36,681 nt of DNA from Escherichia phage vB_EcoS-689R5, in the sequence record ON470583; one strand, written 5' to 3'. Position numbers and translations under genes: made by a program. Shown here piece after piece: positions 1,425 through 18,591 of the stretch (position 1 is its first letter; every line of letters starts with the position of its first letter). Below the pieces are notes generated by a model that did not search any database, was not told where the DNA came from, and was given only the letters and a program-made list of their open reading frames with translations.

Positions 1425-1500
1425 TGGCTCCTCTGACTGGACTCGAACCAGTGACATACGGATTAACAGTCCGCCGTTCTACCGACTGAACTACAGAGGA
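1425..1500 (-). tRNA. asnT: tRNA-Asn (anticodon GUU)
   Basis: Reverse complement reads UCCUCUGUAGUUCAGUCGGUAGAACGGCGGACUGUUAAUCCGUAUGUCACUGGUUCGAGUCCAGUCAGAGGAGCCA, a 76-nt cloverleaf. Which asn paralog is inferred from the mtfA neighbour. Confidence 0.93.
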
Positions 1501-2481: not shown

Positions 2482-2571
2482 CCATCTGAACGGAGAGATG
2501 CCGGAGCGGCTGAACGGACCGGTCTCGAAAACCGGAGTGGGGGCAACTCCACCGGGGGTTCAAATCCCCCT
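2482..2571 (+). tRNA. serU: tRNA-Ser (anticodon CGA); likely attachment-site tRNA for the adjacent prophage
   Basis: GGAGAGAUGCCGGAGCGGCUGAACGGACCGGUCUCGAAAACCGG...GGUUCAAAUCCCCCUCUCUCCGCCA, 90 nt with long variable arm and CGA anticodon loop. Confidence 0.92.
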
Positions 2572-2626
2572 CTCTCCGCCAAAATTCAATCACTTACACA
2601 TCATTAAGTCAGTGACAAAAATCACA

Positions 2627-7001: not shown

Positions 7002-7059
7002 AAAAAGGGCGGCAGAGCAGTCACGGAGTAAAACTGATACCGCCAAACGTCACCAGAAA
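7002..7059 (-). ncRNA. dicF: DicF small RNA
   Basis: Reverse complement reads UUUCUGGUGACGUUUGGCGGUAUCAGUUUUACUCCGUGACUGCUCUGCCGCCCUUUUU with a terminal GC stem plus U-run, between ydfC and dicB. Exact processed ends not determinable. Confidence 0.8.
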
Positions 7060-8210: not shown

Positions 8211-8858
8211 TTATAGGTTGAACTGCACACCTTTTGCTACGGCAACAATTTTACACTCTGGCGTAAGCAAGGATGATTGATAGCGCGGATTGAGAGGGCT
8301 TAAATACACAAGTTTTCCATCAATAACTAATTTTTTTATAGTCATAGACGGTTCATTTGTAAGTGGATCTGGAACTATTACAGCGACGATACTGCCATTT
8401 TTATAACTCTCTCCTGGTCTTAGGATCACAGTGGCACCAACCGGGATACTTGGTGACCCTGAGGGGTTATGCATAGTGTCATCAGGCATTGAAACGGCAA
8501 AATCACCTTCCACTACATCAAAGAATGTGGTGATCCTATCGACATTTCCCATTGTTTTCTCTCCTTCTAAGATTAGGAAAGAAATCGCGTCACCCCACGA
8601 AAAGTAGGGGATCTTGGTGCCTGGATTGCTCTGCACAAAAGATAGTTCAGGAGACGATACTCCATACAGGAGATAGGACTCAGTAGTTCCTAATGCCTGG
8701 GCTAACTTACTTAGAGCTTTGCTGCCGGGTTCGTTTAGATCTTTCTCCCAGTACCCTATAGTAACCCCAGTCACGCCTGAAAGCTTACCCAGTTCTACTT
8801 GGGTGAGTCCCTTATCTTTTCTGAGTTTCTTAAGCCTGATGCCAAGGCTTTCCATCAT
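8211..8858 (-). CDS. CI-like prophage repressor (HTH-XRE N-terminus, LexA/S24-like C-terminus)
   Basis: 215-aa ORF divergent from cro; N-terminal LTQVELGKLSGVTGVTIGYWEK helix-turn-helix; C-terminal peptidase-like domain. Confidence 0.8.
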   Translation of the reverse strand: MMESLGIRLKKLRKDKGLTQVELGKLSGVTGVTIGYWEKDLNEPGSKALSKLAQALGTTESYLLYGVSSPELSFVQSNPGTKIPYFSWGDAISFLILEGEKTMGNVDRITTFFDVVEGDFAVSMPDDTMHNPSGSPSIPVGATVILRPGESYKNGSIVAVIVPDPLTNEPSMTIKKLVIDGKLVYLSPLNPRYQSSLLTPECKIVAVAKGVQFNL

Positions 8859-8897
8859 TTTCTCCCGCGAGTTGAATATAAATTATTTTAGATTGCA

Positions 8898-8940
8898 TTG
8901 ACCTAAAAAAAATTATCCTGTAATCTAAAAATACTTAGAT
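8898..8940 (+). promoter_or_regulatory. pR-like promoter (TTGACC-17 bp-TAATCT) with overlapping palindromic operator ATCTAAAAATACTTAGAT
   Basis: Consensus-like -35/-10 with 17-bp spacer about 30 bp upstream of the cro ATG; operator half-sites ATCTAA/TTAGAT. Confidence 0.6.
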
Positions 8941-8954
8941 TTTAGGAGAGTAAA

Positions 8955-9182
8955 ATGCGAGTTGATGAACTTGTTCAGTTTTTTGGCTCTGTTCAGAGGG
9001 TCGCTGATTTTTATGGGATAACCCGCGAAGCTATTTACATGTGGCGTAAGCGCCCCGGTGAAATAGTTCCGAAAGGGAGAGCTGCGGAAGCTGCTGCATA
9101 CTCCAAGGGAAAATTATCTTTGAACCCAGAGCTTTACAAAAAGAAGGATACCACCCGGGACAAAAGGAAGAGTGATTCATGA
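8955..9182 (+). CDS. Cro-like regulator (75 aa)
   Basis: Small basic ORF divergent from cI, preceded by AGGAGAG Shine-Dalgarno; stop overlaps the next start (ATGA). Confidence 0.7.
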   Translation: MRVDELVQFFGSVQRVADFYGITREAIYMWRKRPGEIVPKGRAAEAAAYSKGKLSLNPELYKKKDTTRDKRKSDS

Positions 9183-9604
9183 AAATCAAACATGAACATA
9201 TCCGCATGGCGATGAATGCCTGGGCGCATCCGGACGGCGAAAAAGTACCGGCTGCGAAAATTACCAAAGCGTATTTCGAGCTGGGAATGACGTTCCCGGA
9301 ACTGTATGACGACAGCCATCCGGAAGCCCTAGCTCGCAATACTCAGAAAATTTTCCGCTGGGTGGAGAAAGACACCCCTGATGCGGTTAAAAAAATTCAG
9401 GCGTTGTTACCAGCTATCGAAAAAGCAATGCCACCTCTGCTGGTGGCCCGAATGCGCAGTCATAGCTCAGCCTATTTTCGGGAACTAGTGGAGACGCGGG
9501 AACGACTGGTGAGAGACGCTGATGATTTTGTCGCAGTGGCGATCGCTGGTTTCAACCAGATGAATCGTGGTGGCCCTGCAGGAAATATTGTGGCTGTGCA
9601 TTGA
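9179..9604 (+). CDS. YdaT-family protein (proposed CII-like regulator)
   Basis: 141 aa, N-terminus MKIKHEHI... as in Rac YdaT; sits directly after cro where cII would be. Confidence 0.5.
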   Translation: MKIKHEHIRMAMNAWAHPDGEKVPAAKITKAYFELGMTFPELYDDSHPEALARNTQKIFRWVEKDTPDAVKKIQALLPAIEKAMPPLLVARMRSHSSAYFRELVETRERLVRDADDFVAVAIAGFNQMNRGGPAGNIVAVH

Positions 9605-9675
9605 CTCGCAATATTCATACCGGATCACTTCCGGCAATTTGTGAGTAAAAAGATTCGGTATCAAAAGAGGTGAGT

Positions 9676-10746
9676 ATGGCTAACGCCTGGCTCAGATTAT
9701 GGCATGACATGCCAAATGACCCTAAGTGGCGAACAATTGCCAGGGTGTCAGGGCAGCCAATTGCAACAGTGATGGCAGTGTATATCCACCTCCTGGTGAG
9801 CGCGTCACGAAATGTCACGCGAGGTCACATTGATGTCACGACAGAAGATTTGGCAAGTGCGCTCGACGTGACAGAAGAGGTAATTGATTCAATTTTGCAG
9901 ACGATGCAGGGGCGGGTACTTGATGGTGATTTAATCACTGGATGGGAAAAACGCCAGGTGCTTAAAGAGGACAACGGCAATATTTCGCAAACCGCAAAAT
10001 CTCCTGCAGAGCGCAAGAGGGCGCAGCGAGAGAGGGAAAGAAAGCGGGAACAAAATGGCGATTGTCACGGCGCGTCACGAAATGTCACGCACATGTCACG
10101 ACGAGTCACGACAGATAAAGATACAGATAAAGATACAGATCAAGAAGATCAAAACACTATGGTCCATGGCGTAAAAAACGCCACGAACCAGGCAGGGGAT
10201 GTTCAGACCGTCAATCCTGGTCAGCCAGCAGGCACGACACCGGAAGCCGATTCAGCGTATGCGCTGAAAGCCGATTCGGGCGCTGTGCAGCAGGTGATGA
10301 CCGCAAGGCCGGAGCAATCACACCAACTGCAGCAGCCTGAAGCCGATTCCGCCATTCAGCGGGAAGCCGATCGGGTAGTCCCGGAAAGCACCGGGCAGTC
10401 TGTGGGACGAGTGGATTATCCGGATGTGTTCGAACAGGTCTGGCGGGAGTACCCGTTGCGTGCCGGAGCAAACCCGAAGAAATCCGCTTTCAGTGCCTGG
10501 AAGGCCAGATTACGCGAGGGGGTGCCACCAGAGGCCATGCTGGATGGCGTGAGGCGTTACGCAAGATACTTGGCGGCTACCGGGAAAACGGGAACGGAAT
10601 TTGTTCAGCGAGCGACGACGTTTTTTGGACCGGACCGGAATTTTGAGAACCCCTGGTTGCTCCCGGTAAGCAGCACGAACAACCAGCGTTGTGTGAATCA
10701 TATTTCTGAACCGGATAACGAAATTCCGCCGGGCTTCAGGGGGTAA
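9676..10746 (+). CDS. Phage replisome organizer / replication initiator (O-like) containing the origin iterons
   Basis: N-terminal WLRLWHDMPNDPKW replisome-organizer motif; coding sequence holds two clusters of GTCACG iterons and an AT-rich repeat. Start taken at the ATG 5 nt after AAGAGG. Confidence 0.75.
   Translation: MANAWLRLWHDMPNDPKWRTIARVSGQPIATVMAVYIHLLVSASRNVTRGHIDVTTEDLASALDVTEEVIDSILQTMQGRVLDGDLITGWEKRQVLKEDNGNISQTAKSPAERKRAQRERERKREQNGDCHGASRNVTHMSRRVTTDKDTDKDTDQEDQNTMVHGVKNATNQAGDVQTVNPGQPAGTTPEADSAYALKADSGAVQQVMTARPEQSHQLQQPEADSAIQREADRVVPESTGQSVGRVDYPDVFEQVWREYPLRAGANPKKSAFSAWKARLREGVPPEAMLDGVRRYARYLAATGKTGTEFVQRATTFFGPDRNFENPWLLPVSSTNNQRCVNHISEPDNEIPPGFRG
9801..9840. repeat. 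Iteron cluster 1: four GTCAC(G/A) direct repeats at 10-11 bp spacing
   Basis: cgcGTCACGaaatGTCACGcgagGTCACAttgatGTCACG; the 20-mer cgcgtcacgaaatgtcacgc recurs exactly at 10071-10090. Confidence 0.75.
10061..10150. repeat. Iteron cluster 2 (five GTCACG repeats) plus AT-rich tandem acagataaag x3; probable ori
   Basis: attGTCACGgcgcGTCACGaaatGTCACGcacatGTCACGacgaGTCACGacagataaagatacagataaagatacagat. Confidence 0.7.
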
Positions 10747-10786
10747 GTGTTAATTTCTGGTCATGAGGTAATTTTCAGGAGGGCTT

Positions 10787-10984
10787 GTGGCAAAAGTTTT
10801 TACACAAGAAGAGCGGGAAAAAATTAAAGGGCAGGTTCTTGAACTCGTACGCCAGAGTGGACGCGAGACGTTACGACAACTGGAAGCTAAAACTGGGGCA
10901 ACAAGATATCTGATGAGCGTTCTGGCCAGAGAGCTGGTTGCCAGTGGCGATGTATACAACTCTGGTTACGGGTTATTCCCGTCT
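10787..10984 (+). CDS. Hypothetical protein, 5' fragment interrupted by the assembly gap
   Basis: ORF MAKVFTQEEREKIKGQVLELVRQSGRETLRQLEAKTGATRYLMSVLARELV... runs into the N run. Confidence 0.4.
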
Positions 10985-10994
10985 NNNNNNNNNN
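10985..10994. other. Assembly gap (10 N)
   Basis: Literal nnnnnnnnnn in the sequence; true length unknown. Confidence 0.99.
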
Positions 10995-10995
10995 G

Positions 10996-11211
10996 CGTAA
11001 GGATTGGCAAAATACCCGTAAAAAGCTCTCAAGGGCAAAGCTGAAGAAACCATCTGCGGTTGATCCGGACCTTATCTGGTCATTACCAGACGGAGAAATA
11101 CGCCGCTACGACAGGCGTCAGAACATAATCTGTCGCGAGTGCCGGAAGAGCGAAGCTATGCAGCGTGTGCTGGCGTTCTATCAGGGTAATTTTCAGGAGG
11201 TGATGGCGTGA
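10996..11211 (+). CDS. Hypothetical protein, 3' fragment after the gap (same or different gene as 10787-10984)
   Basis: Open frame ...RKDWQNTRKKLSRAKLKKPSAVDPDLIWSLPDGEIRRYDRRQNIICRECRKSEAMQRVLAFYQGNFQEVMA ending at TGA that overlaps the next gene start. Confidence 0.35.
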   Translation, partial: RKDWQNTRKKLSRAKLKKPSAVDPDLIWSLPDGEIRRYDRRQNIICRECRKSEAMQRVLAFYQGNFQEVMA

Positions 11212-11507
11212 GGGTGAGGATTTATATCGCTGGTCCGATGACCGGGTATAAAAATTTCAACCGTGAGGCGTTCCACGATGCGGAAGAGGAACTGAAACGG
11301 GAAGGGCATACAGTCTTAAACCCGGCAGTACTTCCGGACGGGCTGACACAGCCACACTACATGGATATTTGCATGGCAATGATTCGTTGTGTTGATGCGA
11401 TTTACATGCTGAAAGGCTGGCAGCGGTCAGCAGGCGCTAAGGCAGAACTGGCGCTGGCGGAGAAGCTGGGGCATGCAGTTATTTTTCAGGAGGCAAACAG
11501 TGAGTAA
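11208..11507 (+). CDS. DUF4406-family protein (nucleoside 2-deoxyribosyltransferase-like fold)
   Basis: MRVRIYIAGPMTGYKNFNREAFHDAEEELKREGHTVLNPA...; GTG start 7 nt after CAGGAGG. Confidence 0.6.
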   Translation: MRVRIYIAGPMTGYKNFNREAFHDAEEELKREGHTVLNPAVLPDGLTQPHYMDICMAMIRCVDAIYMLKGWQRSAGAKAELALAEKLGHAVIFQEANSE

Positions 11508-12036
11508 CCAATGGCGACCAGATATTTGCCCTATAACCGGACGTGCATTTTTCATGTGGATTGAGCATCCGACATTGGGAAATGTGCCGACGTATGGTGG
11601 CCCATTAGATAGCTACACCATCCCAACAAAGGACAGCGACGGTGAGTTTTCATGTGAGCGTTACGATCATGATTTCGGTGGCTGGGTAGAAAGCGAATGT
11701 CTTGGGTTATATCTGATTGATGATAAAGAACAATGCAGAGTCTACGAACTCGAGGAGCGCGTTAAAGAGCTGGAAGCGCGGGAAATAAAACCGGCCAAGG
11801 GCGAAGTTCTTGTCGTTGTATCTGGTTTTACTGGTTGCGGAAAAAGCGCCATTGCCGGGGAAATAGAAATCGCGATGAAGGCTATTGGTGTACCGGTTCA
11901 GTGGACTAATGGCGATGCAGAAAAGCGCATGACAGGAGCTGACTGGCTGACAGCAATTGAGATGTACAAACCAACTGTGCGCATTGTGGAAGTTAATGTG
12001 CCACGCGTCGCTGGCATTCGCATCAAAGGAGAGTGA
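11500..12036 (+). CDS. Hypothetical nin-region protein with a Walker-A-like motif (GFTGCGKS) in its C-terminal half
   Basis: GTG start overlaps the previous stop; motif VVVSGFTGCGKSAIAG. Confidence 0.5.
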   Translation: MSNQWRPDICPITGRAFFMWIEHPTLGNVPTYGGPLDSYTIPTKDSDGEFSCERYDHDFGGWVESECLGLYLIDDKEQCRVYELEERVKELEAREIKPAKGEVLVVVSGFTGCGKSAIAGEIEIAMKAIGVPVQWTNGDAEKRMTGADWLTAIEMYKPTVRIVEVNVPRVAGIRIKGE

Positions 12037-12037
12037 C

Positions 12038-12394
12038 GTGGAAATAAATCCAGAAGATGAGTTAAGCAATATCGTTTTATTTCCGGTAAAAGAGGATGAC
12101 CCACGTAATCAGGTTAATTTTCTTTATGAGCCATCGGAAAGACCATACTGCCATCACGCTTCTGTCCGGGTTGACGAAAAAGAGCGTCAGGTCCGCTGTA
12201 AAATCTGCGGTGCAGTTGTGGAGCCGTTTGACTGGATGCTCTCTGTGGCGAAAAGAGAAACCAGACTGGCAGATGATGTAAGGCTATTGCGCCAGGAGGA
12301 ACAGGAAAGGCGGAAAAATATAGAAAAGTTAATTCAGATTGAGCGTAACGCGAAAGCGCGGATACGCAGGGCGACAAAATCCAGAACTGAATAA
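12038..12394 (+). CDS. Hypothetical protein with a putative Cys/His zinc-binding motif
   Basis: GTG-initiated ORF MEINPEDELSNIVLFPV...CHHASVRVDEKERQVRCKICGAVVEPF...; basic C-terminus. Confidence 0.45.
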   Translation: MEINPEDELSNIVLFPVKEDDPRNQVNFLYEPSERPYCHHASVRVDEKERQVRCKICGAVVEPFDWMLSVAKRETRLADDVRLLRQEEQERRKNIEKLIQIERNAKARIRRATKSRTE

Positions 12395-12487
12395 TTAAAT
12401 TTAGCTCTGTTAAAAATTTAATCCTTAACCGGAGGGATTTCTGCACCTTCAGAACATCAGGAGGCCGCCCGAAAGGGCGGTAGTTAA

Positions 12488-12670
12488 ATGCGAAAGTTTA
12501 AAATAATTATTGAAACGGGAATAGCCGGTGGAGATTTCGAGGATGAATTCGAAGTGGATGATGATGCGACGCCTGATGAAATACATGACGAAGCAAAAGA
12601 TATTTTCTTTAACTACTGCAATTACTCATATCACGAAATAAAAGACGAAGAGGAAGAACAAAATGGCTGA
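12488..12670 (+). CDS. Hypothetical small acidic protein (60 aa)
   Basis: ORF MRKFKIIIETGIAGGDFEDEFEVDDD...; SD AGGAGG lies 5' of a GC hairpin that precedes the ATG. Confidence 0.45.
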   Translation: MRKFKIIIETGIAGGDFEDEFEVDDDATPDEIHDEAKDIFFNYCNYSYHEIKDEEEEQNG

Positions 12671-12839
12671 TTCTGGTTCAACTAAATATAACGCCAGTTT
12701 TGAAGAATGGCATGAACTGTTAATGGATTATGCAGAGTTACGCGGTGGAAGTGCCGCTGATGCTGAAGCATGGCGTGATGATTATGAAGCAGGGAAAACA
12801 CCGGTCGAAGCATATTGTGATGAGTGGGGCGATGAATGA
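12663..12839 (+). CDS. Hypothetical small protein (58 aa); absent from the supplied ORF track
   Basis: Manual translation MADSGSTKYNASFEEWHELLMDYAELRGGSAADAEAWRDDYEAGKTPVEAYCDEWGDE; start and stop overlap the neighbouring genes. Confidence 0.4.
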   Translation: MADSGSTKYNASFEEWHELLMDYAELRGGSAADAEAWRDDYEAGKTPVEAYCDEWGDE

Positions 12840-13195
12840 GCGAGATTAATTATCAGGAAGGGCATGAAAAGGCAGGGCAGGCAAAACCAGTGGCATGGCG
12901 ATATCGCTACGTGAAAAAAGGCGTTACAGACTTTCAGGGGAAGCAGTGGGTTGGTGACTGGAAATATGTCCCGACAAAAGAGGATTGCAACGACAGGCCG
13001 AGCTATGAGATTCAGGCCTTATTCACTGTCCCGCCTGTGCCACTGACACCAGAAGGATTGATTAAAGCAGTGCGTTTCTATGAACAGGTAAAGCGTGAGA
13101 ATCCGCCAGTCGAAACCGGAGCATGGAAAGACGCTGTTGACTGGGTGCTCAAAGAGGCTTGCCAGGCTGTAAACATTGGTACCAAAGGAGATTGA
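12836..13195 (+). CDS. Hypothetical nin-region protein (119 aa)
   Basis: ORF with start overlapping the upstream stop (ATGA). Confidence 0.5.
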   Translation: MSEINYQEGHEKAGQAKPVAWRYRYVKKGVTDFQGKQWVGDWKYVPTKEDCNDRPSYEIQALFTVPPVPLTPEGLIKAVRFYEQVKRENPPVETGAWKDAVDWVLKEACQAVNIGTKGD

Positions 13196-14421: not shown

Positions 14422-14711
14422 CTGGCCTGAGGCATTTACAACGGCAGGAATCGCAATGGCTGTGGCGCTGGTGGTGTATTCGATTTGCCGCTGGGGATAA
14501 AAACGGTTTGCGGGAAAAGGAGAGTTAAGTAGAATTGCAGCGGGTGCTTGAGGCTATCTGTCTCAGGCATGAACACCAAAAGGCAGATAGAGAAAAGCCC
14601 CAGTTAACATTACGCGTCCTGCAAGACGCTTAACATTAATCTGAGGCTCAATCTATGAACGGCAAATCTAGGTTAGCCTCTTACGTGCCGAAAGGCAAGG
14701 AGAAGCAGGCT

Positions 14712-14867
14712 ATGAAGCAGCAAAAGGCGATGTTAATCGCCCTGATCGTCATCTGTTTAACCGTCATTGTGACGGCACTGGTAACGAGGAAAGACCTCTG
14801 CGAGGTACGAATCCGAACCGGCCAGACGGAGGTCGCTGTCTTCACAGCTTACGAACCTGAGGAGTAA
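14712..14867 (+). CDS. hokD: Hok/Gef-family type I toxin (51 aa, hokD/relF-like)
   Basis: MKQQKAMLIALIVICLTVIVTALVTRKDLCEVRIRTGQTEVAVFTAYEPEE; the track ORF extends in frame upstream (MNGKSRLASYVPKGKEKQA), a possible mok-like leader. No relBE is seen upstream. Confidence 0.8.
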   Translation: MKQQKAMLIALIVICLTVIVTALVTRKDLCEVRIRTGQTEVAVFTAYEPEE

Positions 14868-18281: not shown

Positions 18282-18357
18282 GGCCCTTTAGCTCAGTGGT
18301 GAGAGCGAGCGACTCATAATCGCCAGGTCGCTGGTTCAAATCCAGCAAGGGCCACCA
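18282..18357 (+). tRNA. tRNA-Ile2-like (anticodon CAU; ileX/ileZ-type, could also read as tRNA-Met)
   Basis: GGCCCUUUAGCUCAGUGGUGAGAGCGAGCGACUCAUAAUCGCCAGGUCGCUGGUUCAAAUCCAGCAAGGGCCACCA; clean cloverleaf with CUCAUAA anticodon loop. Confidence 0.8.
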
Positions 18358-18358
18358 G

Positions 18359-18435
18359 CCGCCACTAGCTCATCAGGAAAGAGCGTCAACCCTTTAAGTT
18401 GAGTGTGCGAGGTTCGAGTCCCCGGTGGCGGTCCA
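18359..18435 (+). tRNA. Atypical tRNA-like gene (anticodon loop CCUUUAA; isotype uncertain, possibly UUU/Lys-like or a pseudo-tRNA)
   Basis: Perfect 7-bp acceptor stem (CCGCCAC/GUGGCGG), U8-A9, D arm, TUCGAGU T-loop and encoded CCA; but C at position 33 and one T-stem mismatch. Confidence 0.5.
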
Positions 18436-18437
18436 GT

Positions 18438-18513
<76 letters not shown>

Positions 18514-18516
18514 TAT

Positions 18517-18591
<75 letters not shown>

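Follow-up and report, generated by a model that had tools for sequence, protein, structure and literature searches.

The replication-initiator gene of Escherichia phage vB_EcoS-689R5 (sequence record ON470583), analysed here within a stretch of 36,681 nucleotides that we call the window, contains two phased arrays of a 6-bp direct repeat. Across related phages and prophages, the two arrays carry the same hexamer as one another even where the hexamer itself differs from clade to clade, and the second array is followed by an AT-rich, purine-rich tract. We consider it probable that the region is an origin of replication of bipartite form, embedded in the initiator gene, in which array 2 and the adjoining candidate unwinding element would form the core and array 1 would serve as an auxiliary array. 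Our statements on origin function, binding, and unwinding are predictions made from sequence. The first-pass annotation of this DNA had reported four GTCAC(G/A) repeats and five more downstream at helical spacing, and both sets are present with spacings of 10-11 bp (Table 1). It had also described an AT-rich tandem repeat and an exact duplication between the clusters; the former does follow array 2, but with a period of 12 and 2.9 copies rather than as three copies of a 10-mer, and the latter is 21 bp long, not 20 bp. Plus-strand GTCAC occurs 46 times in the window, and nine of these copies fall within 310 bp, where 0.32 would be expected (Poisson P ~6e-11).

The arrays are not peculiar to this phage. 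A tblastn search with the N-terminal 175 residues of the initiator as the query recovered homologues in Aeromonas and Pseudomonas phages (~70% identity), metagenomic Caudoviricetes (~47%), and Ralstonia phages (38%). In Aeromonas phage pAEv1818 and Pseudomonas phage P7869, at ~70% amino acid identity, both arrays stand at the same codons as here; the Aeromonas and Pseudomonas genes contain four GTCAC copies, then three or four ~230 bp on, and then GATAAAGAT repeats. The two-hexamer unit of the duplicated 21-bp segment is likewise found in both arrays of homologues. Other relatives have a different hexamer in the same two places: both arrays read GCAACG in Ralstonia phage Hennie and GAACGC in MW202785. 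A single inverted copy of the hexamer, which lies beyond array 1 in our phage, follows the same pattern. It is found at the matching place in many GTCACG-class loci, it reads CGTCAC instead in GTGACG-class loci, and in Hennie it is CGTTGC.

A scan of one genome per species, with an alignment of the N-terminal domain (N-domain) of the initiator, gave 80 loci from Gamma-, Beta-, and Alphaproteobacteria and some other groups, 79 of which were usable for an analysis of covariation. At least three periodic hexamers are present at the array-2 position in 60 of the 79 loci, and 51 of the 60 loci with a clear array 2 also have array 1 (at least two copies), so that a pair of arrays, which the first-pass annotation had thought unusual, is the common condition within the family. 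When the dominant core of the array-1 zone was compared with that of the array-2 zone, the two agreed at 56 loci (GTCAC at 26, GAACG at 18, GTAAC at 5, GTGAC at 4, and GCAAC at 3) and disagreed at none; a further 10 loci have array 2 only. Shuffled pairing averages 16 concordant loci and reached 56 in 0 of 10000 trials. At 43 of 58 loci, a 6-mer found de novo in array 2 had two or more copies within the 110-nt array-1 zone, against a background of 0-10 copies per ~3-5 kb of flank, both strands counted. The consensuses of the classes have ...ACG in common and vary in the three bases before it. Every switch of hexamer class among these loci altered both arrays, together with the inverted copy where one is present. 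The bipartite origin that the first-pass annotation offered as one of two options is therefore the one we favor: both arrays persist in Escherichia, Aeromonas, Pseudomonas, Ralstonia, and many further prophages, concordant loci outnumber discordant ones by 56 to 0, and the synonymous sites of array 1 are frozen, as described below.

Table 1. Positions of the repeats, the associated elements, and the genes of the initiator locus in the window
Feature	Position	Strand	Details
Hexamer array 1	9804-9840	+	GTCACG at 9804, 9814, and 9835; GTCACA at 9824; spacing 10/10/11 bp
Hexamer array 2	10064-10110	+	GTCACG at 10064, 10074, 10084, 10095, and 10105; spacing 10/10/11/10 bp
Inverted hexamer copy	9867-9872	-	CGTGAC on the + strand; 27 bp beyond array 1
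21-bp segment, first copy	9800-9820	+	GCGCGTCACGAAATGTCACGC; two hexamers plus spacer; exact match to 10070-10090
21-bp segment, second copy	10070-10090	+	GCGCGTCACGAAATGTCACGC
AT-rich, purine-rich tract	10111-10159		ACAGATAAAGAT x2.9 at 10111-10145, then CAAGAAGATCAAAACAC; putative DNA-unwinding element
Imperfect inverted repeat (hairpin)	10160-10190		13-pair stem; DNA fold -8.7 kcal/mol, z=-3.1
DnaT-like C-terminal tail	10681-10743	+	Last 21 residues (336-356), SEPDNxIPPGFRG; putative host-replisome recruitment handle
Replication-initiator ('phage replisome organizer') gene	9676-10746	+	356 residues
S24/helix-turn-helix cI-like repressor	8211-8858	-	
P22-Cro-like gene	8955-9182		
YdaT-like gene	9179-9604		cII position
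DUF977/Ren-like gene	10787-11044		

We assign array 2 and the AT-rich tract to the putative core because they are near-universal among the loci, whereas array 1 is an additional element, though a widely conserved one. The ACAGATAAAGAT repeat begins directly 3' of array 2 and has 95% matches over its 12-bp period, and across 10100-10180 the GC content falls to 0.35 while the AT skew climbs to +0.5 to +0.6. In the homologues, the 60 nt past the last repeat of array 2 are at least 8 points AT-richer than the gene at 55 of 60 loci (mean +16), and this enrichment persists even in GC-rich hosts. Most of these tracts are made of (GATAAA)n, (GATACA)n, or (GAGAAG)n, and among different phages the purine-rich motifs use all three reading frames. 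The hairpin immediately beyond the tract is tentatively part of the origin; it is the one element of 8800-11300 that exceeded shuffled sequences in a promoter and terminator scan of that interval. A short inverted repeat of a C-run and a G-run (ACCCCC...GGGGGT) can be seen by eye in many homologues, ~20-140 nt past the last array-2 hexamer. In a comparison with shuffled controls, a hairpin past the AT tract stood out at 5 of 60 loci only, and for this reason we do not claim a family-wide hairpin.

A mechanism of the following kind would account for these elements. The N-domain would bind the 6-bp repeats, which share ...ACG and vary in their first three bases, as an oligomer arranged on a single face of the helix. 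The initiator on array 2, together with supercoiling, would open the adjoining purine-rich AT tract, as at lambda ori and SPP1 oriL, and the C-terminal domain with its DnaT-like tail would then recruit the host helicase machinery. The initiator bound to the auxiliary array 1 may contact that on array 2 by looping or wrapping of the intervening DNA, and such a contact would stabilize a larger origin complex and raise the local concentration of the initiator. Array 1 might also slow transcription of the initiator's own gene.

The geometry of the two arrays is suggestive of such looping or wrapping. They lie ~230 bp apart here and are separated by gaps of 168-319 bp in the homologues, and yet 44 distinct arrangements share a common register, with R=0.63 at a period of ~9.85-10.0 bp and a phase difference of ~10 degrees at 10.0; none of 5000 random-offset controls attained this value. 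Expressed modulo 10, the gap falls in {8,9,0,1} for 27 of 34 distinct values. The period of the register differs both from 10.5 bp and from the mean of ~10.25 bp within the arrays. We also tentatively entertain a more specific proposal, which may well prove too strong, that of a phase-locked two-array origin whose auxiliary array is written in the flexible-loop codons of the initiator's own DNA-binding domain. If it is true, a change of specificity, of which five hexamer classes are seen, must be made jointly in two arrays, an inverted site, and a portion of their own binding protein. Binding site and binding protein would then be coupled in a self-referential manner, and the locus would offer a natural system for the evolution of replicon specificity and incompatibility.

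Several points weigh against the bipartite origin as we have drawn it. Ten loci, mostly alphaproteobacterial, have array 2 and the AT tract without array 1; array 1 is not indispensable, because at these loci the other two elements occur alone. Its role, whether positive, negative, or regulatory, is not fixed by the sequence data. With no more than five classes, and hence few switches, the loci in the covariation counts cannot be taken as phylogenetically independent. The common register could come in part from shared ancestry combined with gain and loss of repeats at the edges of the arrays, and its peak is at ~9.85-10.0 bp, not at 10.5. The contact partner of the DnaT C-terminal tail was sought in a 2026 paper on the preprimosome and is not given there. 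Finally, the literature searched contains no binding, unwinding, or origin-mapping experiment on this initiator family.

In one alternative, array 2 and the AT tract are the whole origin and array 1 is a control site. The initiator, bound within the 5' portion of its own gene, would either obstruct RNA polymerase (autorepression) or pair array 1 with array 2 and so inhibit firing (handcuffing or looping). The control iterons of P1 (incA) and F (incC) behave in the latter way. Array 1 is dispensable in some lineages and array 2 with its AT tract is not; the loci that lack it are mostly the most divergent, alphaproteobacterial ones, in which a plain AS...ERG loop is encoded at that place. In addition, the composition profile has no strong AT tract 3' of array 1, the array is transcribed as part of the initiator gene, which comes after the cro- and cII-like genes, and its specificity is the same as that of array 2. 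Each of these would suit a control site. However, comparative data do not separate positive from negative action, the ~10-bp register fits positive and negative looping models alike, and a fast-replicating induced temperate phage has a less obvious need for copy-number restraint than a plasmid does. We regard a purely controlling array 1 as somewhat unlikely, although it is the strongest of the alternatives.

The identity of the protein that reads the hexamers can be approached through the domains with which they travel. The AlphaFold model of the initiator has a winged-helix N-domain at residues 1-90, a basic helix at 110-126, a disordered linker at 128-244, and a helical C-domain at 250-316. 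The winged helix is the single such domain in the model and resembles the DnaD N-terminal domain. Loci of the GTCAC class are joined to 12 different C-terminal clusters, and the same clusters are also paired with other classes. These pairings establish, as far as genome comparison can, that the hexamer class is inherited with the N-terminal winged-helix domain and not with the C-terminal domain. The protein is thus a classical modular initiator, with an N-domain that is co-inherited with its repeats (iterons) and an exchangeable, helicase-recruiting C-domain. Outside the loop, class-specific residues of the N-domain could not be told apart from those that mark clades, and no clear specificity determinant emerged among them. 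In principle the hexamers could be sites for some other protein, such as a host factor or a YdaT/cII-like or Cro-like regulator encoded upstream. We hold this to be very improbable: prophages whose hosts are close relatives differ in their hexamer (GTCACG for E. coli, GTAACG for Enterobacter, CGTCAC for Erwinia), the hexamer follows the clade of the initiator N-domain, the upstream genes differ among phages that share GTCACG, and the cI-cro intergenic region contains no cluster of the motif.

Two loci depart from this organization. In L049 (a Serratia metagenome-assembled genome) and L070 (Pantoea), the N-domain is fused to a different middle segment (YVYYV...VGIS.NPW.R, gene nt ~320-690), which is GIY-YIG-like by eye, and CTACG/CGTAG repeats at two places replace the usual arrays.

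The arrays fit inside a gene because the codons concerned specify a flexible loop (residues 46-55) and the disordered linker. Array 1 encodes residues 43-55, which comprise the last part of helix 3 and an N-domain loop of low confidence (predicted local distance difference test score <50 at residues 47-51), array 2 encodes residues 130-145 of the linker, and the inverted copy encodes a DVT turn that joins helices 4 and 5. Variants in E. coli have a 7-residue insertion in the array-1 loop that brings two extra iterons and an 11-residue insertion within array 2, and the number of TDKD units varies. The hexamers start in codon phases 3,1,2,1 in array 1 and 2,3,1,3,1 in array 2; they occupy all three phases and therefore constitute a DNA repeat, not a peptide repeat. 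Among 24 non-redundant homologues with the GTCAC core (mean pairwise nucleotide identity 67%), the entropy at third codon positions is 0.33 bits within the array-1 hexamers and 1.44 bits elsewhere in the first 90 codons (Mann-Whitney p=2.8e-5). Taken together, these comparisons demonstrate, at the level of aligned genes, that both hexamer arrays and the AT tract are selected as DNA. In the GAACGC class (e.g., L003, gene nt 122-150), the conserved loop E-R-G is encoded GAA CGC GG., with the iteron lying on those very codons, and lineages without array 1 keep ERG with other codons. The placement of the iteron on the ERG codons may hint at how array 1 originated.

The other option of the first-pass annotation, an internal duplication, has two points in its favor if it is taken as a recent and functionless event (or a gene conversion): the 21-bp identity between the arrays, and ACAGA as the five bases directly 3' of the last hexamer in both (GTCACGACAGA). 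An accident of this kind is very improbable, in that phages from different bacterial classes, whose proteins are 34-70% identical, have both arrays at matching codons, the synonymous positions of array 1 are frozen, and the array sequences switch together across five classes. The first-pass annotation would have counted its reading as refuted had the repeats been missing from near-identical homologues, but 26 of 28 GTCAC-class loci keep both arrays. An old duplication followed by selection is possible; a neutral recent one is not. Least credible of all is the notion that the DNA repeats are a by-product of a needed peptide motif (S-R-N-V-T / R-V-T-T), for although both 21-bp copies encode A-S-R-N-V-T, the 10-11-bp period shifts successive hexamers to different codon phases, array 1 falls in a low-confidence loop and array 2 in a disordered linker, codons are fixed more tightly than the amino acids demand, and other clades encode quite different peptides yet retain periodic hexamers.

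The linker also contains direct repeats of another kind, a pair of 36-nt copies at 10240-10275 and 10336-10371 that are 96 bp apart and encode 'PEADS...'. In several E. coli variants the protein is shorter by exactly 32 residues at these repeats, which is consistent with recombination between them. Separately, protein P0020 (E. coli, 302 residues), a rare variant, is without the last three array-2 hexamers, the entire AT tract, and some of the linker, and probably represents an origin-deleted, replication-defective prophage.

At the other end of the protein, the tail (residues 336-356) is almost a copy of the E. coli DnaT C-terminus. It matches positions 76-96 of the crystallized DnaT fragment 6aep_A with E=0.005, and it also matches the NF002770 DnaT model at positions 157-179. 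No gene for a helicase or helicase loader follows the initiator in 10787-13195, nor is there one in phage Tritos. The genes that follow the homologues elsewhere differ: the Aeromonas phage has a small loader-like gene called 'replicative helicase', the Pseudomonas phage has one for a primase-helicase, and the Ralstonia phage has dnaB. The combination of a DnaT-like tail with the lack of a loader gene suggests that host primosome or helicase-loading proteins are used directly, and the tail may be a mimic of the host primosome protein that serves in helicase recruitment.

The initiator matches PHROG 3729, 'replication initiation protein', over its full length (E=1.8e-256, 1-356 of 356), and the 90%-identity cluster labeled 'phage replisome organizer' by NCBI has 5786 member sequences. 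Its remote PHROG links include phrog_4880, 'replisome organizer', with E=5.5e-6. A Pfam search of the protein returned zero families at E<=0.01, PF04492 Phage_rep_O, PF09681, and the Rep families included, and TIGR01714, the model for G38P-type organizers, scored 15.4 bits (E=0.016), far below its cutoff of 49.8. Alignment of the N-domain with lambda O by hhalign gave a probability of 0.07, and with SPP1 G38P the hhalign probability was 0.14; BLASTP found no homology in either case. The gene is an initiator by its position and its membership in PHROG 3729, and it is not a homologue of lambda O.

The comparison with the lambda origin inside O that was drawn in the first-pass annotation consequently holds in its layout, with iterons in the initiator gene followed by an AT-rich tract, and fails in its homology. 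As in lambda, the predicted origin lies in the initiator gene at the junction between a DNA-binding N-domain and a recruiting C-domain; on the coding strand an A-rich, AT-rich tract comes directly after an array, and an inverted repeat comes after the tract; and the genes run in the order cI - cro - cII-like - initiator - ren-like. The positions are close as well, as the four annotated iterons of lambda O are at nt 349-433 and here array 2 is at gene nt 389-435 and the AT tract at nt 436-484. The iterons themselves are unlike those of lambda, which are 18 bp long, ~20-24 bp apart, and each an inverted repeat, whereas here they are 6-bp direct repeats, one per 10-11 bp. Lambda has a single array and a P gene; here there is a second array in the region coding for the N-domain, an inverted copy, and no loader gene.

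Another functional parallel is G38P of Bacillus phage SPP1, a non-AAA+ replisome organizer whose own gene holds AB boxes beside an AT-rich unwinding element, and G38P bound to these boxes by the unwinding element has been shown to drive replication (PMC5737612). The likeness to oriL in gene 38 is that the organizer gene embeds its own repeats and, in our case, a predicted unwinding element. Gene 38 has a single central repeat zone, mid-gene, and its position matches that of array 2. The second G38P site, oriR, is a distant locus and not a phased array 230 bp away in the same gene; SPP1 also encodes its own loader and helicase, and its G38P has no detectable sequence similarity to the initiator described here.

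Satellite phage P4 provides a precedent for paired sites. The same repeats, to which its initiator binds, are found in both ori and crr, and each of the two sites has a part in replication. In P4 the sites are separated by kilobases and the initiator is a primase-helicase, whereas the arrays here are ~230 bp apart within one initiator gene, and the protein encoded by that gene lacks any enzymatic domain. Iteron plasmids are comparable in other respects: P1 incC/incA, F ori2/incC, and RK2 oriV have helically spaced direct repeats, a winged-helix initiator, and an adjoining AT-rich element, and in such plasmids a second repeat array near the rep gene acts by pairing or looping and restrains copy number. 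Plasmid iterons are 17-22 bp long and lie outside coding sequence, and the Rep proteins have a WH1-WH2 fold; the repeats here are 6 bp long and inside coding sequence, and the initiator has a single winged helix and no match to WH1-WH2 Rep proteins. The features general to iteron origins are nonetheless all found here, namely repeats at each helical turn, an adjoining AT-rich element, and co-inheritance with the DNA-binding domain. The system differs from those of lambda and SPP1 in the form of its iterons, in the second phased array within the region coding for the DNA-binding domain, and in having no loader gene. The literature searched, in which the coverage of journals is incomplete, yielded no published description of the origin of this family, and a paper on the 'Eru' of Stx phages makes no mention of iterons.

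The analysis yields an origin map that can be tested, with a core array, an unwinding element, and an auxiliary array, and a hexamer 'code' of five specificity classes in which specificity would move with the N-domain and the C-domain that recruits the helicase is freely exchanged. Such a code may be of use for predicting prophage replication, incompatibility, and cross-activation in polylysogens, as well as for building orthogonal phage-derived replicons, and the phased second array could serve as a simple natural model for auxiliary initiator sites that act at a distance. The module is widespread. Of 5426 complete E. coli genomes, 2078 (more than a third) carry it, O157-type variants included; it also occurs in prophages across Proteobacteria, and it works in isolated phages (Tritos, Evi, and vB_Eco phages).

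The window as a whole is an E. coli lambdoid prophage, and bases 9600-10800 are 97-98% identical to the isolated phages vB_EcoM-606R7, Tritos, and Evi. Downstream of the DUF977/Ren-like gene are a deoxyribosyltransferase-like gene and then genes of unknown function. The DUF977/Ren-like gene itself contains a run of 10 N at 10985-10994, an assembly gap or masking, and this run is the reason for the XXXX in the translation of its open reading frame. A near-match to a DnaA box at 9782-9790 was noticed by eye and dropped, as it is not kept in homologues. Rfam searches identified a DicF antisense RNA at 7007-7058 (-) with 76.7 bits and a sok-type antitoxin RNA at 14542-14717 (+) with 112.4 bits, both of which are typical accessories of Qin/Rac-like lambdoid prophages. 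Four tRNA genes (Met, Lys, Thr, and Gly) are clustered inside the prophage at 18282-18591 (+), and tRNA-Asn at 1425-1500 (-) and tRNA-Ser(cga) at 2492-2581 (+), near the left end, may mark the integration site.

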